NCBI GenBank assembly: GCA_963842525.1
Contig: CAWJGT010000003.1
Coordinates: 256,001-320,000, forward strand
Reading direction: 5' to 3'
Length of the DNA: 64,000 nt
Source: an uncultured Holophagales bacterium
Lineage (GTDB): Bacteria; Acidobacteriota; Thermoanaerobaculia; Multivoradales; UBA5704
Part shown: piece after piece, positions 6,950-24,420 of the stretch
How the letters are laid out: every line of letters begins with the position of its first letter
How positions within the stretch are numbered: the stretch's first letter is position 1
The notes under the pieces: model-generated
Told to the model about the DNA's origin: nothing
What the model saw: only the letters and a program-made list of their open reading frames with translations
Database searches by the model: none
Made by a program: the position numbers and the translations under genes

Positions 6950-6952
6950 GCC

Positions 6953-8527: not shown

Positions 8528-8540
8528 AAGGAGGAACGGC

Positions 8541-9206: not shown

Positions 9207-9252
9207 GCCCCGTTCGCCTGAAACCTCCGCATCCTCCCGCCGTATCTCCCTC

Positions 9253-9298
9253 TTGACGACAGATGTAGTCACCGGGTAGGATGACTACAGACGTAGGC
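9253..9298 (+). promoter_or_regulatory. sigma70 promoter with two BlaI/CopY-type operator boxes
   Basis: TTGACG (9253) N18 TAGGAT (9277); GACGACAGATGTAGTC (9255-9270) and GACTACAGACGTAGGC (9283-9298) resemble TACA-N2-TGTA. Confidence 0.7.
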
Positions 9299-9323
9299 AG
9301 ATGTGGAGAACGACGGAGGACGG

Positions 9324-9710
9324 ATGAACCCCAGATCGATTGGAGACCAGGAGCTGGCGGTGCTGCGGTACGTCGCCGAGCAGGGGCCGACGACGGTGGG
9401 CCAGGTGGCCGAAGGGTTCGGCGAGCCGCGGGGGCTGGCGCGCTCGACGGTGCTCACGATGATGGAGCGGCTGCGCCAGAAGGGGCATCTGGACCGCGAG
9501 CCGGTGGACGGTGTGTTCCGGTACTTCTCGCCGGTGCCCGAAGGAGAGCTTCTGCGCGGCGCGGTGCGGACGTTCGTGGAGAAGACCCTCGACGGGTCCG
9601 TGTCGCCGTTCGTCGCCTATCTCTCGGAGACGGCGGAGGTCTCGGAGAGTGAGCTGGCGGAGCTCGAGGATCTTGTGGCCCGGCTCAAGTCGAAAAGGAA
9701 GGAGGGTTGA
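9324..9710 (+). CDS. BlaI/MecI/CopY family transcriptional repressor
   Basis: ELAVLRYV..GP.TV..V....LARSTVLTMMERLRQKGHL; GSVSPFVAYL; GGAGG RBS before ATG 9324. Confidence 0.93.
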   Translation: MNPRSIGDQELAVLRYVAEQGPTTVGQVAEGFGEPRGLARSTVLTMMERLRQKGHLDREPVDGVFRYFSPVPEGELLRGAVRTFVEKTLDGSVSPFVAYLSETAEVSESELAELEDLVARLKSKRKEG

Positions 9711-9711
9711 G

Positions 9712-11685
9712 ATGGACGGCTCGGCAACCCTGATCGGCCTGATCGGCCGTGCCTCGCTCCAGGGGGCGATCGCGATTGTCGCGGTGTGGGCCGTCTGCCG
9801 GCTCTTCCCGCGCCTGCCTGCCTCGCTGCGTTGCGGGCTCTGGTGGCTCGCCTGCCTGAAAGTGGTCCTCGGGCTCGTCTGGACCAACCCGGTACCGCTG
9901 CCGGTTCTGCCGGCCGCCGAGCGGCCACCCGTGACGCTCGTCGCCACGGCTCCCATGGCCGAGGCGGGGCCGGCTGCGGCCCACCCCTCGGCACCGCTCG
10001 ACGAGGCGGCGCCCTTCCCCTGGACGCTGGTACTGGTGGGGCTCTGGGCCGCCGGTCTCGTTGGACATCTCGCCTGGACCACCGGCCAGCTCCGGCGGGT
10101 TCGGGCAATCGTCCGGGAGGCCGAGCCCGTCAAGGAACGCTGGGTCGTGGACCTCTTCGCAGGGCTCCGGGAAGAGCCCGCATCACCCCGCGCGCCGAGG
10201 TGCTTTCCGCAGAGGTCGAGACGCCGCAGGTCCTCGGTCTGTTCCGGCCGGGGTCTTGCTTCCCCGGCGCACGCTCTCCCGCCTCTCTCCCGCAGAGCTG
10301 GCGATGACCCTCTGCCATGAGCTGCTCCATGTGCGTCGCGGCGACCTGTGGCTCGGCTGGGTGCCGGCGCTGGCGCAGCGGCTGTTCTTCTTTCACCCCC
10401 TCGCGCGGCTCGCGGTGCGCGAGTATGCGTTGGCCCGCGAGGCCGCCTGCGATGCGGAGGTGCTGCGGGTCCTCGATCCCGCTCCTGACGCCTATGGCCG
10501 GCTTCTCTTGAGATTGGGCGTGGCGCCTCGGGTCCCGCGGCTGGCCGCGGCGGGCGCCGCGCCCTCGGTTGAAACTCTGAAAAGGAGACTGATGATGCTG
10601 CAACAAGCTTCGGATAGAAAGCGCCTTCATCCCGCCTGGTGGGGGCTGGTCGTCCTCGTGGCTCTGGTGGGCCTGATCCCGTTCCAGATGGTGGCCCAGG
10701 GCCCGGAGGAGGAGGTCGCTCCGGTGGCCGCGGTCGAGCCTGTGCCTGAGATCGCGCCTGTCCCCGAAGGCGCGCCGGTCCCCGTGGTCGAGCCTGCGCC
10801 GGAGGCCCTGCCTGTCCCTGCGGAAAGCTCTCCCCGCGCCCGAGGCCCTGCCGGCCGTGGCGGGCGTGCCCGGTGCAGCAGCGCCTGTGCCCGCTGTGGC
10901 GGGCATGCCCGGTGTGGCGAGCGTGCCTGGTGTGCCATCCCTGCCCGTCCTCGCCGCCGCCGTGCCAGGCGCCTATCCGGCACCTCATGCGAAGGGGGCC
11001 GGGCAGTGCCGCCGGCGCCTCCGCGGCCGCCCGCGCCGCCAACTCCACCCAGAGCGCCGAGGGCGCGGCACGCTTCGTGGACCGACGACGGCGATGATTC
11101 CTATGTCGTCCGGCTGGATGGCAACCATCACATCATGAGCGGTTCCAGCTCGGAGTCTAAAAAAGGCCGGCAAGCTCCTGGTCTGCTCCGGGATCTGGTT
11201 CGAGCGCGACGGCAAGGAGTACGTCATCCGCGATGCGGCGACCGTCCGGCAGGTCGAGGGTGCTCTTCAAGCCCCAGACTCAGCTCGGCGAGAAGCAGGC
11301 CGGCCTGGGTGAGAAGCAAGCCGGCCTGGGAGAGAAGCAGGCGAAGATCGGTGCCCAGCAGGCCAAGCTCGGCGCCAAGATGGCTGGTCTCGGCGCGAAG
11401 CAGGCCTCTCTCGCCGCCCAGCAGGCGAGCCGGGGAGGGGAGGAGGATGACGATCTCGAAGAGAAGATGGAGGATCTTGGCCGCCAGATGGAGGCACTCG
11501 GCCGCCAGATGGAATAAGCTCGGCGAGCCCATGGAGGCAGCTCGGGCGCCAGCAGGAGAAGCTCGGAGAGCAGCAGGAGGCGCTGGGTGGGCAGCAGGAG
11601 AAGCTGGCTGGAGCAGGCCGAGCGCCAGCTCCGGACCATCCTGGACAAGGCGCTCGCGAGCGGTCTGGCCCAGGAAGTGAAGTAA
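9712..11685 (+). CDS. M56 family (BlaR1-like) metallopeptidase with Pro-rich linker and coiled-coil tail; frameshifted
   Basis: N-terminal TM helices, HELLHVRRGD (HExxH), REAACD, LKRRLMML; LGEKQAG heptads; spread over frames 9511-10320, 10061-11680 and 11233-11517. Confidence 0.85.
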
Positions 11686-11686
11686 A

Positions 11687-11927
11687 CCTCACCCCCTGTC
11701 CCCCTCTCCCATCGCACTCCCCCCACCGGGAGAGGGGGAACGCGTCTGATTGCCTGCGGCATTTCGGGGGAGGGTTGGAGTGGCGGAGAGGCGTTCGGGT
11801 GCAGCATGCTGTGCCCCTACAGCCTCCACTGGCAGGCAGCTCCGGTAAAAACCGCGAGGCTCCGCCTACGTCCCCCCTCTCCCGGTGCGGGGAGGGGGGC
11901 GACGGGAGAGGGGGCCAGGGGGTGAGG
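11687..11927. repeat. inverted pair of ~55-bp REP-like units (11687-11740, 11871-11927) with a nested GTAG-type palindrome (11796-11820)
   Basis: CCTCACCCCCTGTCCCCCTCTCCC...CCGGGAGAGGGGG and its reverse complement; minus strand GTAGGGGCACAGCATGCTGCACCCG. Confidence 0.85.
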
Positions 11928-13162
11928 TCACGGCCACAGCCACCAGATCGCCCCCCCCCCCGCCAGCGCCGCCCGAAGAGGACCGCCACCCGCCCGAAGA
12001 GAGCCCGGGTACCGAGGACGGCGACGATCCCCGCCTTGAAGACGAGGTTGGAGAGCACGGCGAGGAGGATCGCCCGCCAGCCGTCGCCCGCGGGGATGCG
12101 GCCGGCGTCGACCAGCCGGGCGGTCGAGAGGGTGAGGGCGTCGACGTCGGTCAGCCCGGAGAGCGCGGCCACTGTGTAGAGGCCGGCGGTGCCGAAGCGG
12201 TCGCGGGCGAAGGCGACGGCGAGGAGCACCGCGGCGTAGAGGGCCCCGAAGAAGAGGGCCGACCTGAGCTGCGCCGGGTTCCCCGGTTCGGGGGGCTCCG
12301 CGGCGTGGTCCCGGTCGGCGAGCCAGGCGACGACCGAAAGCACCGCCGCCACGCCGAACATGGCCCCGATCGGCGGCGCCAGGGCGAGGATCTGACCGGG
12401 GCCACGACCGCGATCTCGACCAGCACGCGGGCGAAAACGACGGTCGAGGCGATCATCACCACCAGGGCCGCCAGCCGGGAGAGCTTCCGGCGCCTCCTTC
12501 GTCCGGCGGGCGTAGCTGACCGTGGTGGCCGTGCTCGAGATGAGGCCGCCGAGGACCCCGGCGAGCACCGTCCCCGCCCCGCGCCGAACAGCTTGTACGC
12601 CACATACCCCGCCAGCGACAGCCCGACGATCAGCACCACCATCCACCAGATCTGGTAGGGATTGAGCACCCCATAGGGCCCAATGTCCCGGTCCGGCAGG
12701 ATCGGCAGGATGACCAGGGCAGAAGGACGAGCTGCATGATCGCCCGGATGTCCTGCTCCCCCATCCGCCCCACGAACCGGTGGAGGGGCTCCTTCAGATG
12801 AAAAGGACCGCAACCGCCCCGCCCAGGACGACCGCGAGCGTCAGCGGCGCGACGACCGTCCGGGCGCCGACGCCGTACATGACGAGAGCCGCGAACTCCG
12901 TCGTCTGCCCCGGATCGGCCTCCCCCTCGCGCAGCCGCACCAGGTTCCCCGACATCACCAGCCCCGCCACCGCCAGCAACCCCACCGCCACCACCCACCC
13001 GCCGAACGCCCGTCCGAGCAGCGCCGCCACCGCCCCGAGCAGCGTGATCAGGGCGAACGTGCGGATCCCCGCGATGGCGGAGTCGATCCGCTCCCGCTGC
13101 AGCCCGACCAGGAGCCCGAGCCCGAGGGCGACGGCGAGCTGGAGGAAAGGCTGCGGGATCAA
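11928..13162 (-). CDS. MgtC/SapB family membrane protein with DUF4010; frameshifted
   Basis: [75 protein letters not shown]. Confidence 0.85.
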
Positions 13163-13274
13163 TTCAAATAAGGTCTCTCCTGCCGGGCGGGCGGTCGGGT
13201 ACGGACGGACGGACGAGGGGATCGTGCGCGAGGCGCTGGAGGGAGAGGGACCTGCTCCGATCTGCTCCGGGAGT

Positions 13275-13516
13275 CGGACAGTTCGCGCCACGGATCGGAC
13301 GGTTTGCGCCAGCGGTGGGACGGTCCATGAAGCGGGTCGGACAGTCCGCCCCGCAGGTCGGACAGATTGTACCGCGGAGCGGACAGTTCGCGCCGAAGGT
13401 CGGACAGTTCCCGCCGCGGGGTGACCGCCATCATATCCGGCGTGAACCGTCCGACCCACGGAGCAAACCGTCCGACCTGCTTTGGTGGCGCCCGCGAGAT
13501 CGGCGCGAACTGTCCG
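13275..13516. repeat. degenerate 21-bp tandem array (7 units) followed by three inverted units
   Basis: CGGACAGTTC-like cores at 13275, 13296, 13317, 13338, 13359, 13380, 13401; reverse-complement cores at 13444, 13465, 13507. Confidence 0.85.
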
Positions 13517-13659
13517 TTCCGGTCTGGTGGCCACAGCAAAACCGGAGCGAGGTTCCGACCTGGTCTGGTGGTCGTCCCAAAATCGGGTCAACCGTTCGCC
13601 GCCCCGAACGTCGCCGTAGAGACGCCTGGTCCGGGACCACGAACCTCACGGCGAAGCCA

Positions 13660-14000
13660 AGCGAGAACGAGAAACCATTGGCGAAGATCGTCCCGGCCAG
13701 GGAAAAGGAAAACGAGCCGCACGCCCTTTCCGGGTTCCAAGGAGGCCCGAGGACGACGATCCGTTCTTCTCAACGATTGAGGAGATCGTGGAAAGCCGTT
13801 TCGAGCACAGGCCGAGAGTGCTGGGAGAAACCTCGGCCGCCCGCCAGAGGACGTCTACGCGGTGAACGGCTATCTGCTGGACACCAACGTTCTTTCGGAG
13901 CTCCCGCCAAAAGCCCCTGCCTCCAAGTTCTGGAGCGCATCCGCCGGGTTCCTGCGCTGACCACATCATCGATTTGTGTGCTGGCTTCCGTCATGGAGCC
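13660..14000 (+). pseudogene. decayed type II TA pair: Phd/YefM-like antitoxin 3' part plus VapC/PIN toxin 5' part
   Basis: EKPLAKIVP...DDDPFFSTIEEIVESR ending in GTGA, which overlaps GTG 13862 of MNGYLLDTNVLSEL; truncated at a REP fragment near 14000. Confidence 0.65.
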
Positions 14001-14069
14001 CCCCCGCCGGGAGAGGGGGGACGCATTCGGAGCTACCGTGCCGGACCTCGCCGAACTGCCTCAGCAACG

Positions 14070-14125
14070 TTCCCCCTCTCCCGGGGATGGGCGGGTGGGA
14101 GATGGGGAGGGGGCCAGGGGTGAGG
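14070..14125 (-). repeat. REP-like unit (partial partner at ~14001-14020)
   Basis: TTCCCCCTCTCCCGGGG...GGGGAGGGGGCCAGGGGTGAGG. Confidence 0.8.
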
Positions 14126-14645
14126 TCACGGCCACAGCCACCAGATCGCCGCCCCGCCCGCCAGCGCCAGCCCGAAGAGGACGGCGATGCGGCCGAACAA
14201 GGCCCAGCATGGCCCCGATCGGCGGCCGACGGCCCGAGCTGGCTCAGCGCCACGATCGCGACCTCGACCAGCACCCGGGCGAAGACCACCGTCGATGCGA
14301 TCATCACGACGAGAGCGGCCAGCACCGTCCGTGCACCCGCTCCGAACAGCTTGTAGGCTACGTACCCGGCCAGCGACAGGCCGACGATCAGCACCACCAT
14401 CCACCAGATCTGGGAGGGGTTGAGCACCCAGATGGCCCCATGTCCCGGTCCGGCAGGACCGGCAGGATGACCAGGGCGAGGAGGACGAGCTGCATGACCG
14501 CCGCAGGTCCTGCTCGCCGATCTTCCCCACGAACCGGTGGAGCGACTCCTTCAGATGAAGCAGGACCGCGACCGCGCCCCCCAGGACCACGGCGAACGCG
14601 AGCGGCGCGACGACCGTCAGGGCTCCGCCCGATTACATCACCAGG
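14126..14645 (-). pseudogene. internally deleted, 5'-truncated paralog of the MgtC/DUF4010 gene
   Basis: [28 protein letters not shown] and ...AAIWWLWP* match the 11928-13162 gene with substitutions and two internal deletions. Confidence 0.8.
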
Positions 14646-14834
14646 GCCGCGAGCAGAGAGTGCCGTTTGCCTACGATGGCGCATGGCTTTATCTCTCTTT
14701 TTCTTTCTGCGCTTACTAGCTCGGAAAACCCTTGTCTTGCCGATCTGTTGCGTATAATCGGTAACGCGAAATCGCTCAACGAGACCGGGAATGGGGTAGA
14801 CCCCCGTCCCTGACAAGCGACAAGGGAGCCTGGA

Positions 14835-14860
14835 GAGAAATTTCTAAGTTCGTCCGTCCA
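14835..14860 (+). promoter_or_regulatory. candidate ECF promoter upstream of the haloperoxidase
   Basis: GAGAAATTTCTAAGTT-CGTCCGTC-CA; same motif and spacing at 21923-21948(-) and 22891-22916(+). Confidence 0.5.
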
Positions 14861-14943
14861 ATTTGGGAATAGCTTTGCGGCTGAAATGACCTAAGGGAGT
14901 GCGTGCGACATTGATACCAGGTTAATGGTAGAAAGGAAGAACG

Positions 14944-16445
14944 ATGGCGACTGACTACATTCTTATCTAGAACGGTTTGTTTAAAGCAAACCGCGTCAGC
15001 CACACCGACGGCAGCAAGGAGCAGAACGGTCCAACGCTGCAGCTCGCGTGCCATGGCGATTGTGCACTTGGCAATGTATGACGCCTACGCGGGCGTAGTG
15101 AAAGAGCCGGCGAAATTGCCACATTACATCACGCCCGCCACGCCGCTCCATCAGGTTCCTCCATCCAGGCAGCGGTCGGGGGAGCCGCGTTCGAGACCCG
15201 ATGACTCTCTACCGAGCCAGCTCGAGTCTTCGAGGACAAGCTCTTGATGCATGGCGATGGATCGAATCCCGGGCATGATTTCGGCCGGCAGGTCGGGCAG
15301 GCGATCTTGATGGACCGCGAGGAGGACCCGGCAGCAAGTCAAGGCAAGTACCGGCCCACAAGGGACGTGGCGGGCACCGAGTTGATCAACAACCCTAGCC
15401 AGGGGTTCCACGGACCGGCCTATGGTACCGCCAAGGCTTTCGCCCTCAAAGCCCTCCACAAGTTGAACAAGCCGCCCTTCGACGACACTGTCTACGAGAA
15501 GGCGCTGCGGCAGGTTCGCGCCAAGGGAATCAAACCGGAGTTGATGGGAGAGTTCCCGCCAATCTCCAAAACGACCGCCGCTCTGCGGAAGAGACCCTGA
15601 TCGGGATCTTCTGGGGCTACGACGGTGCCGCCGGGCTCGGCACGCCGCCGCGCCTCTACAACCAGATCGTACGGAAGATCTCGATCGCCAAGGGGACCAG
15701 CGAGCGCGACAACGCCAGGTTGTTCGCCTTCGTCAACGCCGCCATGGGCGATGCCGGCATCCTGGCCTGGGAGCAGAAGTACGTCCATGATTTCTGGCGG
15801 CCGGTGGTCGGAATAAGAGAGCACGACAAGTCGCTGGGCCCCATCGATGAGGGACAGCCGATGCCGGCGGCGGACCGGATCTCCAAGGACGCCGATCCCT
15901 CCTGGCTGCCCCTGGGCGCGCCTTCATCCAATTCGGCAAGTGCCTGCGTGATGACCGCCCAAGCGACCTTCCCATTCGCCAACGCGCAGTTCGGCCGGGT
16001 GAAGAACTTCACGCCGAACTTCCCGGCTTACCCCTCGGGCCATGCCACCTTTGGGGCGGCCGCCCTGCACATCCTTCGCCTCTTCTACAAAGTCCCCGCA
16101 GGAGATACAAACCCAGACACCCTGTTGAACGGGTTGAAGAACCCGGATGGCACGGACATCTTCTTCGTCTCCGACGAGCTCAACGACAAGACGCAGGACA
16201 ACAACGGCACAGTCCGCCCGCTCCACCGCCGCAAGTTCAAGGACGGTGTGTGGGACATGATCATCGAAAACGGATTGAGCCGCATCTTCCTGGGTGTCCA
16301 CTGGAGCTTCGACGCCTTCGCGGTCAAGGCCAACGGCGCACCCAATCTGTCGAAGAACATCGGCGGCGTGCGGCTCGGATTGGATATCGCGGAGGACATC
16401 TTCGCCTTCGGCGGTAAGAAGGCGCCGAAGAAGTCGTCGGTTTGA
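14944..16445 (+). CDS. vanadium-dependent haloperoxidase (chloroperoxidase-like, PAP2 superfamily); 5' half frameshifted
   Basis: GPT..SRAMAIVHLAMYDAY; WEQKYVHDFWRP; FPAYPSGHATFG; ENGLSRIFLGVHW; in-frame TAG at 14968 where Trp is expected. Confidence 0.85.
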
Positions 16446-16551
16446 GGGGGGAGCAACCTCGCAGGAGGGACGGTGCTGGGCCGTTCCTCCTGGGCTCACC
16501 CCATCTTCAATTTTCTCGCCTTGTGCTCAGGCCGACTTTCATCACAGGTCG

Positions 16552-17511
16552 CTAAGGCGGGTTATAAATACTCGCTATCTTGAGAAGATCAACACAGGCA
16601 TAAAACGGCGTGACAAAATGAAATTTTGCCTCAGCGGTGGTGTATGAGTAGAGTCCGAGCGCATCCCCCCTGTCAGCTTCCTTTTTTTCCATCACTGTGA
16701 GGGAGCCTGAGTCTCCCCATTGACCGAAATTCTGGCCTCTCACAAGAATCTGGTTATCAAACACGACTTTCGTCGGATTCATTCCGCTCATGGTGATCTC
16801 GTACGAGATCATCGCGGTCACGTCGAGTACTTTGCCATTCTTGTCACTCGCCAGATTTGTCACCTTTCTTTTCACAGTCTGCGGAGCATTCTGCTTTGTT
16901 ATGTACTTCCCGCTGATCCGCCCATCTCTCTTCAGATCGACCCTGCCCTCGCATGGATCGACCTCGTCCTCGCATGGCAGGAAGAGTGCGCAGTCCGCTG
17001 AGTTGCTTTGCCCTTGCCCGGTATTGAACCCGCCAAAGCGCCACGATTTTCCCGCTGGTTTAAAGTCGTTTGGTGGAGACAGGACCCTCACGACGTGCTC
17101 TTCTCGTAAGTAAAAAATGTGCTCCACTGTCAGAACGGCCTTCGTCGAATCTTCGTGATAGACAAAACAACCTACACATCCCGGGTCCCCATCTTGCGGC
17201 TTGATCACCGACGCGGGTTCCAGTGAAAATTTTTTTCTGACCGCCGCCAAAAGATTTCCAAAGAAAGTGAAAAACCCGTGTCTGATGGCCTCCATTGGCG
17301 GCGGAGCGGGCGTGCCTCTATGCAACTCGACGAAGTCCAAGAAATCGGCCTCGACGCTCTGAAGGGTGGCCAACGCCGCCTCGCGGTCAGTGTAGAAGAC
17401 GATGAGTCTTTCCTCGACAGGATCTATTCCCACCCCGTTGATGCCATCTGCAGTACCATTGACTATTCTGGCCTTTAAAGTTTTTTTCATCTCTTCGATT
17501 CGAGCGTCCAT
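16552..17511 (-). CDS. trypsin-like (PA clan, Nal1-like) serine protease
   Basis: GCVGCFV, LTVEH (His), ADCALF (Asp), GDSGS (Ser); N-terminal prodomain-like INGVGID..LIVF; start overlaps the upstream stop. Confidence 0.75.
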   Translation of the reverse strand: MDARIEEMKKTLKARIVNGTADGINGVGIDPVEERLIVFYTDREAALATLQSVEADFLDFVELHRGTPAPPPMEAIRHGFFTFFGNLLAAVRKKFSLEPASVIKPQDGDPGCVGCFVYHEDSTKAVLTVEHIFYLREEHVVRVLSPPNDFKPAGKSWRFGGFNTGQGQSNSADCALFLPCEDEVDPCEGRVDLKRDGRISGKYITKQNAPQTVKRKVTNLASDKNGKVLDVTAMISYEITMSGMNPTKVVFDNQILVRGQNFGQWGDSGSLTVMEKKEADRGDALGLYSYTTAEAKFHFVTPFYACVDLLKIASIYNPP

Positions 17512-18473
17512 TATCTGAAGCCCTCAAAGTAACCGCCAGTACAAGGCTTTTCTGTTGCCCCCGCCGAATCGTCTCTGGGAACCGGCACACGCCAGCAAAG
17601 CCATCGACTGGTTTCGCTGGAGAGGCCATAGAACACTTCGAAATCCGGATCGGGAATTCGTTGAACTCTCCTTGGGAGGATCGGATCTGGTTGAAAAAGG
17701 GCAGGGATCTCTGTCTCTGTGTGTACGATGTCGATCCGCAGCACACCCCTTTCTGGGATTTTTAGTATGTAGTCGGAAATATCCGGATCGCCGCTTTCTT
17801 TCCAGATCATGCTCTTGATCGTCACCTCATACCAATCGGCCGGCAGGCGAACCTTCCACGTCAGTTGGTTTGCTAATTCTCTTTTCCAAACCCGCTTTCG
17901 ATATTTGGGAGTGCCAAAGAAGGAATAGACGTAACCAAAATCAACTTTATCGCGCTTGTTTCTAAAAAAGCCGGTTACTGCCAAGTCGCCAGTGGTTAAC
18001 TGAAACGCAGCGGACAGGCCTCTCCTGTCGAAGTCTTTGCTCTTGGGATGGAACCGGAGAGATGCGTATCTATGTTTTGGCGAGATTTCCGACATCTGCG
18101 GCATATAGCACTTCACGTCGGGATGTATGGTGATTTTATTGGTTGGGAAACCAAAATCGAGTTGCTCTCCAAGCAAGAGGATAGCCGCTTGAGCCGGTGG
18201 ACGAGTATCCACCGCTTTCTTTGCGTACTCCCCATCCTGAAAGAGAGCTTCTATTTCGCCGGTAGTCTTATCCTTGTCAATTAGATCTTCGTTGACGATC
18301 AGAAAACCGAAGTGCGGGCTGCGGGCCGGCAGGAGGTTTTCGATGGGGCGCCACCGCGAGGGAGTGGGTACGAGTGCGTTCGGCATCAGCGCCCATAAAG
18401 TATCACCGTCGGGAACGTAGGCGATGGCTCCATGCAAACGCACCTCTAGGTACTTAGTTGATTCTTGATGCAT
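17511..18473 (-). CDS. hypothetical 320-aa beta-rich protein
   Basis: AAGGAGG RBS before ATG 18473; uninterrupted AT-richer ORF between the CHAT and protease genes. Confidence 0.8.
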   Translation of the reverse strand: MHQESTKYLEVRLHGAIAYVPDGDTLWALMPNALVPTPSRWRPIENLLPARSPHFGFLIVNEDLIDKDKTTGEIEALFQDGEYAKKAVDTRPPAQAAILLLGEQLDFGFPTNKITIHPDVKCYMPQMSEISPKHRYASLRFHPKSKDFDRRGLSAAFQLTTGDLAVTGFFRNKRDKVDFGYVYSFFGTPKYRKRVWKRELANQLTWKVRLPADWYEVTIKSMIWKESGDPDISDYILKIPERGVLRIDIVHTETEIPALFQPDPILPRRVQRIPDPDFEVFYGLSSETSRWLCWRVPVPRDDSAGATEKPCTGGYFEGFR

Positions 18474-18543
18474 GCTTTTTCCCTCCTTGCTTGGAAACGT
18501 ATCTCGCATAGCCGGCCAGGAACCTCCAGCTTCGCTTCCCGCA

Positions 18544-21500
18544 TCAGATCCCACTCTCAATCACCTCCACTCCTCCCCATGTCCACGGCCGCTCTTGCCA
18601 ATCCTCGATCTCCTCTCGCGCCTGCCGCACCGCTGCCGCCGCATCGCCCAACTGGCGGCACGACCTGTGGAACATGGGAAAGTAGCTCGCCGCATCGTCG
18701 TCATCAATCTTCCAAAGGGTCCCGACTACGGCTCTTGCGCCGCTGGCCAGGAACGGTCGCGCCAGGCCGCCGAGGCCTTCGCCGCTGCTCCGGCGACGCT
18801 CTCGCAAGCCGAGAGGACGACCAGGGGCCGGCGCGGCAGGTCGGGAAGCTCGCTGCCAGAGCCGGTCCAGATTGACAGTCTCTTTCTCAAAGGCCAGCCA
18901 ACTCCACTCGCTGCGGGTCGAGTTCGCCGAGGCGTGCGTCGCAAGATGGAGCACATCGGCTCTCGGTGCGCACCTGCGGAAGCTCGCCCAGTCGTTGGCC
19001 CGGCAGCGGTCCGAAGCAGCTCCTCCATAGACCTCGCGCACAGCATCGGACTCCCCGACCGCCCGGGGCAGCGGATCGAGACCGAGAGCCGGATGAAATG
19101 AGGCGAAGCCCAGGCTCAGCACCGGAAGCCCCTCGTACGTAGGAACGGCGCGCCGGCCCTGCACAAAGCCTAGGAGTTGGCGCACGCTCGGAGCGAAGGA
19201 TAGGAGGAATATCTCATCCAGATAGCCGCCGGAAGCTGGATTCCACAAAGCGCGGAACGGCACGCCGTATAGCTCGGAATCGGGAATCAGGATCACTCGC
19301 TCCGTTCCTGCCGGCAGGCGTTCCAGGACGGGTGCAAGGAGTTCCTCAAAAAGCGCTCCAGAACTGCGCTTCCAGGCATCCAGTTCGCGCTCCCGCGAGA
19401 GCGAGCGGATGCGTTGGCCGAGCTTTTCTTGAAGAGTGAGGATCACCTGGTCCAGGCGCCCTCGGCTAAGGATCCACGCGACGGCCCGCTCGCCGAAAAC
19501 TGCGTATTCGACGATGGCCGTATCCGCCGGCACGGCGGCGGTGAATCGGTCCACGTCTTTGCGCCCGGGTAGCCAGAGCTCGGCGCTCCTGCGGGGGGCC
19601 AGGCGGTCGCGCATCTCCTCGGACAGCAAGAAAGCGGCCGGGCTCGGCTTGCTCCCGGCCGCATCAAGCTCCATCTTCAGAAGCTCCTCGTAGACTTGTC
19701 GCAGCTCGCTGGGTGAGCGCCTCTCGGCGCGCTCCGGCCGAAAACGATCGTTCTGATCCCAACGCCGGAATAGCTGGAGCCCGGCCCAGTATTCGGCAGA
19801 TGCCTCCTCCGGGCGGTCGAGCCGCTGGAGGACTTGGGCTCGCGCGGCCCGCGCCCGCGCCGCGGGAACCGCGAGCCCCCTGGCCTCGTAGCCCGCCGCT
19901 ACCTGGTTGAGGAGCTCGGCGGCCTCTTCCCGCTCGGTCGTGGACCTGTCGTTACCGGCCAGCCAGCGCGCCCGCGACGTGGTGAGGTCGATCTCCGTCC
20001 GCTCCTTGCCATCAGAGTCCGGAGCGGCAAGCAACAGCTCCCCGGCTTGGTTGAGGGCGTCCTTGGCAGCCGCCACGTCCGGTGTGAGGGCAGCTACCCG
20101 AAGCCAGGAATCCACCGCACACAGGGGCCGGTCGGGAAGATCTGGGCAGGCGTCGGCCGCTTCCATTCTCAGCTCGACGGCCGCTCGGCTAAACCGGCCG
20201 GCCGCCGCAGTGGCAGCAACCACATAGATGGAGTACCGATCCCAAGGATCCACCACCCACGATGCAGCCAAGAGCGCAGCAGCCAAATCCGTCGACGACT
20301 CACGCTCCCGACCAAGCAACCCGAGCAACTCGGCGATCATCGCCGCAATGACCGAAGAGGTTTCTCGATCACCCAGCGCCTCGAAATGCTGTCGGGCATC
20401 CCGATAAACGTCGACCGCCGCCTCCAGCCGGCCCTCCAAACTGATCCGAAAGGCGGCAATGCGCCGCGCCTCAGCCGCGATGGAAGGAAACCGTCCCCTC
20501 TCGGCCGCCAGATCGAGATCGTGGAGCTCGGCCCAGTCCGGCTCCGTTATCAGCCAGGCCCGCAGTACTCGGGCTCGCAGCTCAAAGGGACTTGTCGCGG
20601 CCCGAAAATCCGCAATCGCACTTTCGAGGAGCGCGAAGGCGGCGCCCGTCTGCTCTTCTCGCGCGCGCGAGCAGGCACGGCCAAAGGCTTGGTGGCCACG
20701 AGCTAGCCGGTCGAGTCGCGTTTGGTCTCCAGCCTGTTGGGCCTCGCGGATCGCGGCAGCACTTGCCGCCAGAAGCCGGCCGCCGTTTCCAGGAAGAGTC
20801 GATGCAACGACCTCGGCATCGGAGAGAGCTGCTTCGGCATTGGTAAGAGCTGCCGCGGCATCGGCCTGTCGGCTGGCGAGAAATTGTTCCGCCCAGCGAG
20901 TGAGGAGAATCCTCTCGCCAACCAGACGGGCAGCCCATGGATTTCTCTCCACCGCGGCAAGATCGATTTCCGGAGTCGCAAGTAGCTCGCTCCAGGACCG
21001 GCTCGAGGGAGCCTCCTGCTCCAGCCGGTTGAGCCGCTGTGCCGCTTCCTGAGCCCAGGCGGATCTGGCGTCCTGATCCAGGTAACGCCGCCAAGCGGCG
21101 ATAGGCCGGGCACGCAGTCCGAGTCTTTCGAGGGCGAAGGCTTGGTTGAACAAAGCTGGCAACGAGGGTTCCAACTGCGCCGAGCGCTGGGCCAGTTCGA
21201 CGGCTTCAAGCGCGGGCCACGGGTCTCCCGTGACATCGCTCTCCGCAAGCAAAGCCGCCGCAAGGTCATTGAGGAACCGAGGATCGTCAGGTTTCTGGGC
21301 GAGGGCTCTCCGAAGCAAGGCGACTGCCGCGTCTGGTTTTCCATTCAGAAGGTTAAGAACGGCCAGTGCTGCCCGGCTCTCCGGTGAAGCATTTCGTGCA
21401 TCGGCCGCCCTCTGAATCGCCACAGAGATCTTGCGGGGAACAGGCAATTCGTGCGAGGCCTCTACGGCCGAAGCGGCGTCTCCACGAGTTGAGGTCGGAG

Positions 21501-21796
21501 CACCCCCGGCCTTGGTGGAGGGCCGACTCGTGGAAGATGGGCGGCGGTAGGGTCTGTAGGAGCTTCTCCCCGGACACGCGCCCTTCGATCGGCCGAGACG
21601 GCCCGAGAGAGTCCAGCAAGCGCTGATGGTCCTTGCTGTAAGCCTGCTCACTCCCAGGCTCCGGGGCAAGAAACTCCTTGAGCGGAGTCAGGGCGAGCAG
21701 CCCAACGAGGCTGAGTCCAAGGAGTGACCACCGCAAGGCTCGCCGCAACGCGCCTCCGATCTCTCGACGTGTACCAGTCTCGCGGAGTGCGCCCAT
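18544..21796 (-). CDS. membrane-anchored TPR-CHAT protease; frameshifted
   Basis: N-terminal hydrophobic helix (WSLLGLSLVGLLAL, frame 21353-21847); TPR LNDLAAALL/ALFNQAFALERLG; LIPDSELYGVPFRAL; His motif VLHLATHA; Cys motif LVVLSACES in frame 18726-19046; FLASGARAVVGTLWKIDD. Confidence 0.85.
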
Positions 21797-21922
21797 CCAC
21801 CAAGGGTGGGCCCGGCACAAAGGCAGACTGGAGTCGATACAAGACACAAGATAGCACGGGGCTGAAGCGTTCGTCGAGCTGCCGAATTACCGCCGATGCT
21901 TATCCAGATCTCATCCTAAAGG

Positions 21923-21948
21923 TAGACGGACGTTGCCGCCGTTTTCCG
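21923..21948 (-). promoter_or_regulatory. candidate ECF promoter upstream of the CHAT operon
   Basis: minus strand CGGAAAACGGCGGCAA-CGTCCGTC-TA. Confidence 0.5.
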
Positions 21949-22077
21949 AAAATCCCAACCAGAGATTGGACATAATGCCTCTTAGTCACACTACCTGGTG
22001 AAGCCGGGCTACACATCAAGAGCACCCACTTCTTATACAATCGACCCGTTACTACGGTCTCGTCGCCAACCTCCTCC

Positions 22078-22878
22078 ATGGCCACCCTCCCCTGCCCCCC
22101 CGAGCTGACCCCTGAGCAGCTCTTCCTTGCCTACCTGAAGGACATCCAGGAGGCGGCGGCCCGCGCGTGCCGGCGGCATCGGCTCAGCCCAGAGGCCGCA
22201 GAGGATTTCCCCTCCTGGGCCATCGAGAAGATCATCGACGACGACTACGGCGTCATCCGGAAGTTTCAGGGGAAGAGTACTTTTCGCACCTACATCACCA
22301 TGGTCGTCCAGCGCCTGATGCTGGATTACAAGAACCACATCTGGGGGAAGTGGCGGAAATCGGCGGAGGCGGAGCGGCTGGGACCGGTGGCGGAACGGCT
22401 CGAGGTGCTGCTGGTCCGGGATGGGGTGCCGTTCGAGGAGGCCTGCGGGCTCCTGCGGACGAACGAGAAGGTGGAGATGTCCTGGGAGGCTCTGGCCGAC
22501 TTGGCGGGGAAGCTGCCTTTCCGCAATCCGCCCCGGCGGATGGAGCGGGAGGAGGCGCTTCTGAATCGGCCGGGAGGCGAGCTGGATCCGGAACGGCGTA
22601 TGCTTTGGAGGGAGGATCAGGCCCGCTGGCAGGAGATCCTAGCCCTGTTCGCTGGGATCCTGAAGACTCTCCCCAAAGAGGACCAGGTCATCGCCAGGAT
22701 GCGAGGCGAGCAGAAGGTGGTCGACATCGCCAGGTGTTTGGGATTGGACCAGAAGTCGCTGTATCGCCGGCTGGAGAAGATTTTCGCGACTTTACGCGCC
22801 GAGCTCGAGAAACGCGGGGTTACTACGGAGGAGATCCGAGAGATCCTCGGATTCCCGGAGGGCCACTTCGATGCCTGA
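22078..22878 (+). CDS. ECF-type sigma-70 factor with an insertion between regions 2 and 4
   Basis: AAEDF....IEKIIDDDY.VIRKFQGKSTFRTYITMVVQRLMLDY (region 2); LPKEDQ...DIARCLGLDQKSLYRRLEK (region 4). Confidence 0.88.
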   Translation: MATLPCPPELTPEQLFLAYLKDIQEAAARACRRHRLSPEAAEDFPSWAIEKIIDDDYGVIRKFQGKSTFRTYITMVVQRLMLDYKNHIWGKWRKSAEAERLGPVAERLEVLLVRDGVPFEEACGLLRTNEKVEMSWEALADLAGKLPFRNPPRRMEREEALLNRPGGELDPERRMLWREDQARWQEILALFAGILKTLPKEDQVIARMRGEQKVVDIARCLGLDQKSLYRRLEKIFATLRAELEKRGVTTEEIREILGFPEGHFDA

Positions 22879-22890
22879 CTGGCCGACCCG

Positions 22891-22916
22891 GGTAATCCTG
22901 GTTCCGCGTCCGTCCC
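22891..22916 (+). promoter_or_regulatory. candidate ECF promoter upstream of the anti-sigma gene
   Basis: GGTAATCCTGGTTCCG-CGTCCGTC-CC. Confidence 0.5.
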
Positions 22917-22971
22917 ATAGGGTGAATGAGCTTGTGCGCCAGAAACTTGGCGCAGTCTCCTTGCTGGAGTA

Positions 22972-24018
22972 GTGATGGATTCTTCTAGCGATACATGCCT
23001 GGCAATGGATGCATGTCCTCCCCTAGAGGACATTGCGGCCTTCCTGGACTGCACACTTTCGGCCGAGGAGCGGGATCGGATCGTGGCCCACCTCGCCGAT
23101 TGCGAGACCTGTTATGAGATGTTCGCCGGGGCCGCGGACTTCCTGACAGGCAAGCCGAAGGACCTGGAGACCATGACCGAGCCGGAGGGAAAGGTGGTGC
23201 GGTTCCCTTTCCCGAGTAGGACGACACCCCCCAGGTGGCTTGCTGCGGCCGCCGCAGCCGCATTGGTTGTGGTGGTCGTTGGGGGCGGATTCGTTTACCG
23301 CGACATGTACACACAGCCAAAGTTGGCCGTGGCCGAGTTGACTGAGCCGGTCTTGAGCAAGGCTGGAATCGTTGGCCAGCTTTACGATTGGTCCCGATTC
23401 CGAGGCCTCGGGAGCCCGAGTGGGTTCGAAGAGGAAGACGCCCGACGCGCCTTCATAGTGGGTGCCCGTCTCGTGGACCTCGGCTTGAGCTCCCACGTCG
23501 GGGACGTCGAGCAGACCCAGGAGGCCCTTCGGGCAATCGGTGAGCAACTCGACAATGCCCTTCTGATGGACGCCATGGCAAAGCGCTATCTCGCCGAAAA
23601 GGAGAAGGTCAAGACGGCATCGGACGCTCGGGAGATCGCCGAACAGATACAGGCGAGGGAGAGAGAATTAGAGAGCGACGAGGCCTCGACACTACTCCCC
23701 GAGTATCTCGCCTTCGGCAAGTGGGCCGAGTCGGGCCACGTGGCCGCCGCTCTCGAAAATCCTGCGTTCTTCGAGGACCGCACCAACCGGCGTTTCCTTT
23801 CATGGCTGCTCCGGCAGGAGGAGGAACCGGAGCAGCCGGGTGCTCTTCAGCTCCTCCTCTCCCGGCTACAGCACCGAGGCGAGATGCCGCTGGATTCAGA
23901 GGTCCTCGATCCTCTCCAGAGGATACAGGACACCCTGGCGCAGGGCGATCTCCAGAAGACGGACTATGAAGCCCTGAAGGCGAGCTTCGACAGCATCATT
24001 GGGCATTACGACATCTAG
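22972..24018 (+). CDS. zf-HC2 (ZAS) transmembrane anti-sigma factor
   Basis: CPPLEDIAAFLD..LS.EER..IVAHLADCETC (HxxxCxxC); TM WLAAAAAAALVVVVVGGGFVY; start may be 23005. Confidence 0.88.
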   Translation: MMDSSSDTCLAMDACPPLEDIAAFLDCTLSAEERDRIVAHLADCETCYEMFAGAADFLTGKPKDLETMTEPEGKVVRFPFPSRTTPPRWLAAAAAAALVVVVVGGGFVYRDMYTQPKLAVAELTEPVLSKAGIVGQLYDWSRFRGLGSPSGFEEEDARRAFIVGARLVDLGLSSHVGDVEQTQEALRAIGEQLDNALLMDAMAKRYLAEKEKVKTASDAREIAEQIQARERELESDEASTLLPEYLAFGKWAESGHVAAALENPAFFEDRTNRRFLSWLLRQEEEPEQPGALQLLLSRLQHRGEMPLDSEVLDPLQRIQDTLAQGDLQKTDYEALKASFDSIIGHYDI

Positions 24019-24033
24019 ATTCGTCTGACTCGC

Positions 24034-24420
24034 GATCGATCCAGCGTCACCCTGAACGCGTATCGAGCGACCTGGATGCATTTCGGGTCACCTGGATCGA
24101 TCCAGCGTGACGCAGAACGCGTTCCGGGCGACTCTGGATGCGTTTCGCGCGACCTCGATCCATCCAGGGTGCTCGATACGCGTTACGGGTGACCGGGATC
24201 GATTCAGCGTCACCCTGAACGCATAACGCGTGCCCTGGATGCATTCCGCGTGAGCCGAAATCCATTCAGGGTGACCTGGACGCGTTTCGCGAGCTCGATA
24301 GCGATCCAGGATGACTTGAAACGCGCTGCAGGTGACTCTGGATCGATCCACGTGGCTCTGAACGCATGCACGTGACTCTGGATCGATCCAGGTGACTCGA
24401 AACGCGTATCAGATCGCTCC
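24034..24420. repeat. degenerate ~21-bp tandem array
   Basis: Recurring GATCGATCCAGCGTCACCCTG / AACGCGT...GACTCTG / GATGCATT...ACCTG units over ~390 bp. Confidence 0.8.

Follow-up and report, generated by a model that had tools for sequence, protein, structure and literature searches.

What does a large TPR-CHAT protease do in a bacterium of the Acidobacteriota when its gene lies back to back with those of an ECF-type sigma factor and an anti-sigma factor, and which of the neighbouring genes belong to the same system? The question is raised by a 64,000-nucleotide stretch (the window) of a contig from an uncultured Holophagales bacterium. An earlier note on this DNA likened the locus to the protease-gated sigma switch of type III-E CRISPR systems, with a second protease and a vanadium haloperoxidase (VHPO) as its outputs. 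From the comparisons presented here we lean, with modest confidence, towards a different reading, in which the locus combines a split form of the DdvS/DdvA-type ECF signalling module with a conserved pair of companion genes.

A sigma/anti-sigma pair faces a TPR-CHAT operon

All of the genes named in the earlier note were found in the window, which also contains assembly indels (see below). The features are collected in Table 1.

Table 1. Features of the locus, with positions in the window.
Feature	Position	Strand	Basis
Vanadium-haloperoxidase-like gene	14915..16445	+	VCPO_N and chloroperoxidase match of the C15 copy
Probable chymotrypsin-fold (Nal1/trypsin-like) serine peptidase, 319 aa	16552..17511	-	His/Asp/Ser triad
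'Orphan', 320 aa, large family without a Pfam model	17511..18473	-	Profile family, hhalign
Membrane-anchored TPR-CHAT protease, DdvA type, ~1083 aa	18544..21796	-	Pfam CHAT and TPR families
ECF-type promoter-like bipartite motif (GGAAA, 10-11 nt, GTCCGTCT), toward CHAT operon	21924..21947	-	Motif search
ECF-type sigma-70 family factor, 266 aa	22078..22878	+	NCBIfam TIGR02937
Single-pass zf-HC2 anti-sigma factor	22972..24018	+	Pfam zf-HC2

The sigma factor is recognised by its NCBIfam model (E 1.6e-14; the score of 53.9 bits clears the cut-off of 42.9); Pfam Sigma70_r2 gives only 19.6 bits, which is under the cut-off, and regions 2 and 4 of the protein are separated by an insert of some 60-70 aa. 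Of 40 relatives, 33 have a homolog of it. Its homology to DdvS is at best putative, since the sigma profile matched neither DdvS nor any ECF sigma factor in the PDB, the best match being region 4 of SigF (E 0.008). The anti-sigma gene starts 94 nt downstream of the sigma gene, and its product matches zf-HC2 above the cut-off (E 3.4e-6, 27.5 bits against 22.2). As read from the sequence, this N-terminal domain is followed by a hydrophobic membrane stretch and then by a C-terminal domain that is helical, spans about 235 aa and is presumed to lie outside the cytoplasm. The residues H40, C44 and C47 of the H-x3-C-x2-C motif are invariant in 10/10 sequences, and the best solved matches of the family profile are the N-terminal domain of DdvA (8rlz, E 1e-4) and DdvA (8rot, E 7.8e-4).

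The divergently encoded TPR-CHAT protein matches Pfam CHAT with an E value of 5.2e-29, as well as TPR families. Its best natural solved match is again DdvA (8rot_B, E 4.8e-36), whereas Csx29-type chains score about 1e-7. The CHAT histidine and cysteine are invariant in 16/16 relatives. A single membrane helix is found in the N-terminus of the window protein once its frame is restored, and among 34 full-length relatives a crude hydropathy scan flagged such a helix in 25, counting two doubtful cases.

The orphan family and the changing third gene

The second gene of the operon encodes a beta-rich protein whose family includes 2,222 cluster representatives at E<=1e-3 and has an invariant His54 and Cys311. 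Profile comparison with hhalign places it together with the proteins encoded after CHAT in the relatives (probability 97.1%, E 6.7e-11). A Pfam scan of 54 family members gave no credible match (two marginal hits, E 0.0014 and 0.0043, each in a single member), and PADLOC assigned none of its families (0). The AF2 model (pLDDT 73, pTM 0.78) had no solved-structure counterpart among the matches listed by Foldseek and VIA. No leader sequence was detected in 40/40 family members checked, and the window protein likewise has no signal peptide. The orphan family is an undescribed, widespread and conserved partner of the proposed split DdvA-type module.

The third gene overlaps the stop of the orphan gene by one base. 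Its product has no signal peptide and no Pfam or NCBIfam family, and is probably a chymotrypsin-fold serine peptidase, judging from the sequence: H131, D173 and S268 (in G[DH]SG) are invariant in 5/5 sequences, follow the order His-Asp-Ser, and are spaced by 42 and 95 residues, close to the 45 and 93 residues of chymotrypsin. Matches to NAL1 chains are weak (E about 0.3), hhalign gives a probability of 0.2% against the Trypsin_2-type third genes of other loci, and the AF2 model is poor (pLDDT 48); Atlas feature matches of 0.96 to clusters carrying Nal1_C/Trypsin provide a lead only. The peptidase class at this position changes from locus to locus. Pfam peptidase domains were found in 16 of the 22 third genes scanned (C14, C39/C70, S8, Trypsin/Trypsin_2, M36 and M48), two others carry DUF6345, and four are without a family, one of which (in L042) matches the window peptidase family with an E value of 4.2e-10. 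The earlier note had called for a survey of partners recurring with the sigma and CHAT homologs; a second protease, of varying class, does recur, in these 16 of 22 third genes, but the VHPO does not (0/66 loci).

The layout recurs across the Acidobacteriota

Recurrence was assessed in two sets of 20 loci, one chosen by sigma homology only within the window's family and order, and the other by orphan-family homology only across the phylum. In the sigma-anchored set, CHAT is followed directly by an orphan-family gene at 16 of 20 loci, the remainder being two contig ends (L017 and L034) together with L021 and L022. CHAT adjoins the orphan gene on the same strand at 18/20 orphan-anchored loci, lying upstream in 17 and downstream in one. 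The layout recurs across family, order and phylum, and the divergent arrangement of sigma and zf-HC2 anti-sigma with TPR-CHAT, orphan and protease, as first described, holds up as a recurring unit. Proteins in which a zinc-binding anti-sigma domain (ZAS), a transmembrane helix (TM) and TPR-CHAT are fused also occur in Acidobacteriota, with a sigma gene upstream in 8/9 cases and an orphan-family gene downstream in 7/9.

The bipartite promoter-like motif occurs once in the region containing these genes. Among 12 divergent sigma/CHAT loci, eight carry an exact GTCCGTC on the CHAT-ward strand with GAAA at a fixed distance before it; 2000 shuffles gave a mean of 0.43 loci and a maximum of 3. No such motif was found upstream of sigma at the loci with fused ZAS-TM-CHAT proteins. 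At L029 all genes run in one direction and the motif still lies upstream of sigma, which is a poor fit to a simple CHAT-promoter reading. A motif had also been claimed to be common to three upstream regions (the sigma/CHAT intergenic region and those of the VHPO and of the orphan/protease genes), but we could not recover it: these regions have no exact 7-8-mer and no one-mismatch 9-11-mer in common.

The survey also bears on a possible, though on balance doubtful, alternative, namely that CHAT, orphan and peptidase form an autonomous triad, such as a cassette for proteolytic defence or cell death, or a system for protein maturation. On this view the core of the triad would work without a sigma factor, and sigma and anti-sigma would here serve only to control its expression or would be no more than conserved neighbours. 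CHAT-orphan adjacency (34/40 loci overall) is tighter than that of sigma and CHAT, and the sigma link appears to be optional for the triad, since no sigma or anti-sigma hit was present in the fetched stretch at 12 of the 18 orphan-anchored loci with CHAT next to the orphan gene. The high frequency of peptidases as third genes points the same way, as do two loci (L058 and L070) that combine an orphan-family protein bearing a lipoprotein-type leader with a secreted M36 peptidase as the third gene product, suggesting that the pair works in one compartment. Against autonomy, the sigma/anti-sigma pair adjoins the triad at 16/20 loci in the window's family and order, and the existence of anti-sigma/CHAT fusions, in other Acidobacteriota as in DdvA, speaks for a direct functional link.

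Frameshifts, base composition and the case for decay

Several reading frames are broken in the window, and its locus has a 98% duplicate in a second contig, C15. Between them, C15 and an independent metagenome contig have intact frames at three indel sites of the window. The N-terminal part of CHAT, which contains the membrane helix, lies in another frame of the window upstream of about position 21564; base 21564 is absent from an independent contig of run X1, and its removal gives a 1083-aa CHAT frame from an ATG at 21796. The earlier note had reported His and Cys dyad motifs in this protein. The catalytic histidine is indeed in frame, but the cysteine motif LVVLSACES falls out of frame between indels near positions 18785 and 18854, and is in frame in C15. 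We attribute this shift to a probable assembly error.

It is highly improbable that the locus is instead decaying, with CHAT and VHPO as pseudogenes in an arrangement that no longer functions. Such decay would account for a VHPO gene spread over three frames, a CHAT start in another frame and an out-of-frame catalytic cysteine. However, C15 has the VHPO gene and the cysteine motif in frame and the orphan and peptidase genes broken, while the latter two are intact in the window; the errors look random between the copies because each is broken where the other is intact. Moreover, the independent contig is without the extra base at 21564, and the out-of-frame stretch of the window gene still codes for a near-perfect CHAT motif.

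An AT-rich effector end at about 14.7-18.5 kb had also been noted. The effect is strong at 16.5-18.5 kb, where GC is 0.50-0.53 against 0.67-0.69 for the contigs, but weaker at 14.5-16.5 kb (0.56-0.65). GC3 in the cassette is 0.5-0.7 compared with about 0.9 in flanking genes. Within the genus, identity is 67-68% for the acyltransferase, 52-56% for sigma, 33-38% for anti-sigma, 26-43% for CHAT and about 20% for the orphan. The low GC3, the fall in identity from sigma through CHAT to the orphan and the non-homologous third genes together suggest cassette swapping under diversifying selection, a pattern that fits a role in defence or antagonism.

The vanadium haloperoxidase is a bystander

The operon was described as converging on a VHPO. 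A convergent VHPO-like gene is present, but in the window it does not form one open frame and is instead spread over three (14915-15247, 15205-15600 and 15399-16445). Eleven small indels between 14923 and 15552 separate it from the C15 copy, which is a single frame of 522 aa. That copy matches Pfam VCPO_N above the cut-off (E 1e-8) and, over residues 168-498, the Curvularia vanadium chloroperoxidase and related chains (1idu, E 5.5e-48), with which the PSGH and RIFLGVHW (RxxxGxH) motif regions of the PAP2-like active site align. The likeness to the Curvularia inaequalis enzyme lies in VCPO_N and these two motif regions; the gene here differs in being bacterial, in encoding at most 522 aa and in being broken by indels in the window.

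No VHPO homolog was found at any of 66 related loci (1.11 Mb searched). Orthologs (58-61%) in four relatives sit elsewhere, in one genome (G010) 1.2 Mb away from its sigma/CHAT locus. The proposed role of the VHPO as an output of the module is not supported, given this absence and the placement of the orthologs, and the lack of co-occurrence is what the earlier note itself had named as grounds for refutation. The VHPO is a strain-specific bystander outside the module, probably an unrelated insertion.

A model for the locus

Returning to the split DdvS/DdvA-type module, which we moderately favour, the TPR-CHAT domain would lie outside the cytoplasmic membrane and act as both a sensor and a site-1-type protease. 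Upon receiving a signal, CHAT would remove or remodel the domain that the separate anti-sigma factor carries outside the cytoplasm, and intramembrane proteolysis would then free sigma. With GGAAA...GTCCGTCT as its conserved promoter, the operon of CHAT, orphan and peptidase would be transcribed by the freed sigma factor. The result would be positive feedback, and the orphan-family protein and the peptidase would constitute an output or effector pair. The sense-cleave-transcribe logic of the earlier note remains plausible because sigma, anti-sigma, CHAT, orphan and second protease recur as a unit. Direct contact between CHAT and the orphan is topologically doubtful, because neither the orphan nor the peptidase has a signal peptide, while prediction places the TPR-CHAT domain outside the membrane.

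More speculatively, membrane TPR-CHAT, orphan-family protein and interchangeable peptidase may constitute a widespread and undescribed three-component proteolytic cascade, in which the orphan would be the common, conserved substrate or pro-effector, activated by the peptidase of each particular cassette, and sigma pairs, including DdvS/DdvA, would be one among several wirings to transcription. We regard this as a tentative possibility. If it were true, the cassettes, hypervariable, low in GC and placed at a fixed site on the chromosome, would amount to an immune-type locus of Acidobacteriota.

Comparison with known systems

In bacterial gasdermin operons the class of the neighbouring protease can vary (caspase-like, trypsin-like, subtilisin-like or CHAT), and the conserved, beta-rich protein of about 300 aa beside class-swapping proteases is reminiscent of them. 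The orphan family differs in having an invariant histidine and a C-terminal cysteine rather than an N-terminal lipidated cysteine, and no gasdermin match was obtained in the PADLOC or 54-member Pfam searches described above, or among the listed Foldseek and VIA matches.

The type III-E CRISPR Craspase system comprises Cas7-11/gRAMP, the TPR-CHAT protein Csx29, Csx30, Csx31 and an ECF-like sigma factor. The resemblance lies in protease-gated transcription logic and in the genetic linkage of a TPR-CHAT protease with an ECF-like sigma factor and with small proteins whose family is unknown. We give very little credence to the earlier proposal of a switch resembling Craspase, with the orphan as a Csx30 analogue that sequesters sigma and is cut by CHAT, and with the peptidase and VHPO as outputs: its components are co-located as in type III-E loci and CHAT does weakly match Csx29-type chains, but sigma already has a dedicated, classical zf-HC2 anti-sigma factor, CHAT is membrane-anchored, unlike the soluble Csx29, and resembles DdvA much more closely, PADLOC and Pfam give no match for the orphan, and neither the VHPO nor the common upstream motif withstood scrutiny. 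Nor were Cas families, including any Cas7-11 or CRISPR context, seen among the Pfam-scanned neighbouring ORFs. Craspase is therefore not the closest analogy.

That place belongs to DdvS/DdvA. The combination had been thought undescribed, which is only partly right: according to the published account, the DdvS-DdvA operon of M. xanthus shows the same arrangement of four parts (PMC11506125). There are also differences. Anti-sigma and TPR-CHAT are here two proteins encoded divergently on opposite strands instead of one polypeptide, and the anti-sigma factor has its own C-terminal domain; sigma has no detectable closeness to a solved DdvS chain; the motif is GGAAA-N10-11-GTCCGTC rather than the GTAA-N16-CGT of the DdvS/DdvA promoter; and the peptidase is serine-type, not C25. 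The DdvS/DdvA regulon includes CBASS/CRISPR defence genes, whereas none were noticed here among the Pfam-scanned ORFs at 8.5-27 kb. The likenesses are an ECF-type sigma factor, a zinc-finger anti-sigma domain, one membrane helix, a large TPR-CHAT of a family that carries the His-Cys dyad (its cysteine motif being out of frame in the window) and has the strong profile match to 8rot_B, and the occurrence of fused DdvA-type proteins in the window's own phylum. Compared by layout, they extend to a protein of unknown function encoded next to ddvA, and in its overall arrangement the locus resembles what in Myxococcus is a phage-defence switch.

Gene content and state of the assembly

The locus lies within contig C3 of a 9.9-Mb assembly (34 contigs, ~68% GC), and the observation of the earlier note holds in part: the gene layout that it set out is present, namely an ECF-type sigma factor, an anti-sigma, a divergent TPR-CHAT gene, an orphan, a protease and a convergent vanadium-haloperoxidase-like (VHPO) gene. 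In the anti-sigma, a hydrophobic stretch is followed by ~235 more residues. The same note described the effector end as AT-rich, which is true of 16.5-18.5 kb (GC 0.50-0.53) but not of 14.5-16.5 kb (0.56-0.65). Rfam matched no family in window positions 14-26 kb, which include an array of repeats lying between the stops of the anti-sigma gene and of a convergent acyltransferase gene.

Features of the sigma/CHAT locus and its surroundings (window positions unless another locus is named)
Feature	Position	Strand	Remarks
ECF-type sigma	22078-22878	+	TIGR02937, 53.9 bits against a cut-off of 42.9; Pfam region 2 sub-threshold
zf-HC2 anti-sigma	22972-24018	+	Pfam above cut-off
TPR-CHAT gene		-	Opposite strand to sigma and anti-sigma; Pfam CHAT, E 5.2e-29
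Orphan, 320 aa	17511-18473	-	Without family match
Peptidase, 319 aa	16552-17511	-	Start overlaps orphan stop by one base
VHPO-like gene	ends 16445	+	Convergent on the CHAT-orphan-peptidase operon
ECF-like promoter motif, including GTCCGTCT (~21924)	21924-21947	-	Only match in the region of the finding
TAnAAT-type box	22034-22041		CTxxTA[TC]A[GC]AATC
MgtC/DUF4010 membrane-protein gene	11267-13591 and 13966-14816		Several frames
Duplicated part of MgtC/DUF4010 gene, ~340 nt	12559-12894, copy at 14316-14652		86% identity; adjoins VHPO
BlaI/Penicillinase_R-type repressor gene	9303-9710		Pfam E 6.2e-26; upstream of a messy stretch at 9.7-14.8 kb
Repeats, imperfect and partly palindromic	24031-24410		~380 nt; periods of ~20, 40, 61 and 102 nt; no Rfam match
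Orphan-family gene at L058	11424-12428		Lipoprotein-type signal peptide
Orphan-family gene at L070	11391-12428		Lipoprotein-type signal peptide

Several of these genes are interrupted, and a second contig of the same assembly (C15) helps in reading them. All 15,433 nt of C15 are a 98.1% copy of window positions 3551-18949 with 84 gap columns, and most of the differences are 1-nt indels. The VHPO gene is spread over three frames in the window and forms a single 522-aa frame in C15, whereas the orphan and peptidase genes are broken in C15 and intact in the window. The His/Cys dyad that the earlier note assigned to the CHAT protein is likewise only partly borne out by the window itself: the catalytic motif LVVLSACES stands in another frame there, between indels at ~18785 and ~18854, but its counterpart in C15 (LIVLSACES) is in frame. 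Upstream of ~21564 in the window, a third frame encodes the N-terminus of CHAT, which has a membrane helix and a positively charged tail. In the public soil-metagenome run X1, one contig is missing exactly base 21564, and without that base the CHAT gene forms a 1083-aa frame from an ATG at 21796, the same length as in relatives. Contigs from X1 and two further runs (X2 and X3) cover 12/30, 8/30 and 6/30 bins; the Cys site and the VHPO indels fall where high-identity cover is lacking. Because C15 and the window are broken at different genes, and because X1 lacks base 21564, we read the window frameshifts as probable assembly errors. Since each contig of the pair carries frameshifts absent from the other, the assembly either contains many 1-nt indel errors or represents two strain variants.

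Recurrence of the arrangement

Close homologs of the peptidase and of the orphan yielded four non-self matches each among 5.8 billion proteins, with contigs of 191,300 and 3,971 nt represented in both cases, and at one locus (L004) the two homologs are adjacent. No peptidase homolog was found among the 40 relatives searched, and a locus search with the peptidase alignment returned nothing from genome contigs and one 1.5-kb contig from metagenomes. Sigma homologs are present in 33 of the 40 relatives. Around the top-scoring sigma matches we retrieved 20 loci. In most of them tblastn placed sigma, anti-sigma and a divergent CHAT gene beside one and the same acyltransferase, and it gave no match to VHPO, peptidase or orphan in any of the 20. 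The first gene past CHAT in this set is always of low GC3 and encodes ~300-350 aa, and its members form a divergent family which aligns with the orphan group of the window (hhalign probability 97.1%, E 6.7e-11, 250 columns). We built HMMs for five targets (sigma, anti-sigma, CHAT domain, orphan family, peptidase) and ran them against six-frame ORFs; CHAT was followed directly by an orphan-family gene at all of the sigma-anchored loci except two at contig ends (L017 and L034) and two others (L021 and L022). A second, orphan-anchored set came from 401 genomes chosen to sample the phylum, 14 of which gave orphan-family matches; the two loci of this set that lack an adjacent same-strand CHAT gene are the weakest partial matches.

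The strongest rival reading of these loci is that CHAT, orphan and peptidase form an autonomous triad to which the link with sigma is optional, and in its favour no sigma gene lies near 12 of the 18 orphan-anchored CHAT loci. The preferred reading, in which sigma, anti-sigma, CHAT, orphan and protease belong together as the earlier note had proposed, draws on the CHAT-orphan arrangement at 16/20 sigma-anchored and 18/20 orphan-anchored loci. On its contig C1 (L046, ~660-664 kb; L056, ~78-82 kb) the genome under study (G000) also contains at least one further CHAT-orphan-family unit, with a classical trypsin bearing a signal peptide as its third gene, as well as a degraded unit split over several frames.

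The third gene

A convincing ORF for a third gene was available in 22 of the 34 CHAT-orphan units listed; 21 of these encode at least 190 aa and start within ~40 bp of the orphan, the start at L046 being 283 bp downstream. The other 12 units, with no ORF, short or implausible ORFs, or a contig end, were left unscanned. Pfam peptidase domains were found in 16 of the 22 and are of very mixed class: C14 caspase (2), C70/C39 papain-like (3), S8 subtilase (4), Trypsin or Trypsin_2 (4), M36 (2) and M48 (1). Two of the remainder carry DUF6345 and four have no Pfam family, although one of the latter (at L042) matches the window peptidase family at E 4.2e-10. The window peptidase itself gave no significant family or fold match, and its AF2 model (pLDDT 48) was too poor for structure searches. 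Its leads were Nal1/trypsin-type clusters in the Atlas (0.96) and NAL1 chains at E ~0.3. His131, Asp173 and Ser268 are invariant, the serine standing in a G[DH]SG motif, with spacings similar to those of chymotrypsin. We regard the third gene of the window as probably encoding a serine peptidase of the PA clan.

The orphan family

Searched with the family profile, 1.84 billion cluster representatives yielded 2,222 proteins at E<=1e-3, 993 of them at E<=1e-10. Stand-alone proteins of 195-410 aa account for 148 of the best 150 of the 2,222, most being ~300-370 aa long. When 54 diverse members are aligned, two residues never vary, His54 and Cys311 (numbered as in the window), and Pro297, Phe278 and Gly162 are each conserved in >90%. 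Pfam gave no credible match to the 54 members (two marginal matches, each to a single member), the family profile found nothing among PDB sequences at E<=1, and the window orphan had no match in PADLOC and no usable match in the Atlas. An AF2 model built from 14 sequences is beta-rich (pLDDT 73, pTM 0.78); Foldseek found nothing in the PDB at E<=0.001, and a VIA wide comparison with 48,161 chains reached a best Z of 2.2, with no solved fold. A complex prediction for residues 440-1106 of the L020 CHAT with its orphan-family partner scored 0.00 against a mark of 0.32, which is evidence neither way. A hydrophobic leader is absent from all 40 members whose match begins at the family N-terminus. 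At three fused-type loci (L055, L058 and L070) the orphan-family members begin with signal or lipoprotein-type leaders, and at the last two the next gene encodes a secreted M36 metallopeptidase.

The haloperoxidase neighbour

Judged by sequence, the 522-aa frame of C15 is a clear relative of vanadium chloroperoxidase (Pfam VCPO_N, E 1e-8; Curvularia VCPO chains, E 5.5e-48, with the active-site motifs aligned). The earlier note had proposed both this enzyme and the protease as outputs of the sigma/CHAT module; of the two, the survey of neighbourhoods ties only the protease to it. No VHPO homolog occurs in 66 related loci (1.11 Mb). Four relatives from other genera do have orthologs, at 58-61% identity, though at other genomic locations: in one (G010) the ortholog is 1.2 Mb away from the sigma/CHAT locus, and in another (G019) it and the best sigma match are on separate contigs. 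Same-genus relatives have only paralogs at 33-35%. In the window, the VHPO gene sits between the module and the duplicated fragment of the MgtC/DUF4010 gene, a gene which flanks the module in relatives. The VHPO looks like a strain-specific insertion, of which the MgtC/DUF4010 duplicate marks the edge.

Promoter-like motifs

On the CHAT-ward strand of the divergent loci, GTCCGTC with GAAA at a fixed 10-12 nt before it occurs at 8 of 12 loci, whereas 2000 shuffles averaged 0.43 and never exceeded 3. This motif is built like an ECF promoter (GGAAA ... CGTC) and in the window is ~130 nt upstream of the CHAT start; a genome-wide search found 12 sites, none of them at the paralogous CHAT locus. Two observations fit poorly. 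At L029 all genes run in one direction, yet the CHAT-ward motif still lies upstream of sigma, and upstream of sigma in the fused loci a GTCCGTC-type motif was not found. A TAnAAT-type box with equivalents in L018-L036, 40-70 nt upstream of the sigma start in most relatives, resembles a housekeeping -10 element, not an ECF promoter. The single motif that the earlier note saw in three upstream regions was not recovered, in that no word was found in common between the regions upstream of sigma/CHAT, of VHPO and of the orphan or peptidase. A scan for consensus promoters and terminators gave fewer matches than shuffles.

Discussion

The cassette is hypervariable. Among congeners, identity to the window is highest for the acyltransferase (67-68%) and declines through sigma (52-56%), anti-sigma (33-38%) and CHAT (26-43%) to the orphan (~20%), and the third genes are non-homologous. 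In one congener (G002) the adjacent cassette is absent and sigma abuts the MgtC gene. The GC3 of cassette genes is 0.5-0.7 compared with ~0.9 in the flanks, both in the window and in relatives. This identity gradient, the genome without the cassette and the low GC3 together are typical of a cassette that evolves fast and can be swapped at one fixed chromosomal site.

By analogy with the mechanism proposed for DdvA, we favour a model in which the TPR-CHAT protein would sense a signal and cut the external domain of the separate anti-sigma. Sigma would then be freed by intramembrane proteolysis and, acting at the conserved motif, could drive the CHAT-orphan-peptidase operon. Judging from how the fused form is oriented and from the positive-inside N-terminus, the TPR-CHAT domain most likely lies on the outer side of the cytoplasmic membrane; hydropathy, crudely scanned, flags a helix in 25 of 34 full-length CHAT relatives, of which two are doubtful. 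Most likely the peptidase and the orphan-family protein work as a pair, given their translational coupling in the window and the export signals that change together in L058 and L070. The orphan may act as a substrate, a pro-effector or a regulator. Efforts to characterise the new family defined here (~2,200 clusters at 50% identity) should be helped by its strong genomic association.

The closest known system is the ECF sigma DdvS and membrane TPR-CHAT anti-sigma DdvA of Myxococcus xanthus. A profile of 16 CHAT proteins has as its best natural solved match DdvA (8rot_B, 991 aa; E 4.8e-36), compared with ~1e-7 for Csx29-type Craspase chains, so that DdvS/DdvA displaces the type III-E CRISPR Craspase that the earlier note had offered as analogue. 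The best solved matches of the anti-sigma profile are the DdvA N-terminal domain (8rlz, E 1e-4), identified as DdvANt in PMC11506125, and DdvA (E 7.8e-4). The sigma profile did not match DdvS, and single-sequence PDB searches with CHAT, sigma and anti-sigma gave a TPR protein or nothing. Our literature search on the CHAT domain with ECF sigma, anti-sigma or Acidobacteria found only the DdvA work relevant; the main text of the ECF reclassification paper mentions neither CHAT nor caspase. In the DdvA report, DdvA is an anti-sigma that spans the membrane, and its periplasmic TPR-CHAT may cleave the linker of the same protein, with RseP acting afterwards; DdvA-like anti-sigmas were found only in Myxococcota and one Comamonas (its Table S7 may bear on this), and the signal and two downstream genes are left unexplained (PMC11506125).

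Nine loci from Acidobacteriota MAGs (L057-L063, L065 and L070) have a zinc anti-sigma domain (ZAS) and one membrane helix (TM) fused to TPR-CHAT, with sigma upstream in 8/9 and the orphan family downstream in 7/9. In DdvA, too, anti-sigma and TPR-CHAT are one protein, whereas the window encodes two. Because the parts are separate here and fused in DdvA-type loci, the window locus is, on its gene sequences, a split form, with an anti-sigma and a membrane-anchored TPR-CHAT. Its GAAA-N10-12-GTCCGTC motif is unlike the GTAA-N16-CGT given for DdvS (PMC6061681). Two companions, an unknown protein and a peptidase, follow in Myxococcus as well, a likeness to the window in layout. What is new is the split variant, the large partner family and the peptidase swapping in DdvA-type modules. 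DdvA-type logic extends to Acidobacteriota, where it occurs fused as well as split. The link to sigma is optional, whereas CHAT proteins of this type keep two partners, a large uncharacterised family and a peptidase of freely exchanged catalytic class. The CHAT-orphan-peptidase loci therefore supply concrete candidates, open to testing, for what is still missing from DdvA-type signalling.
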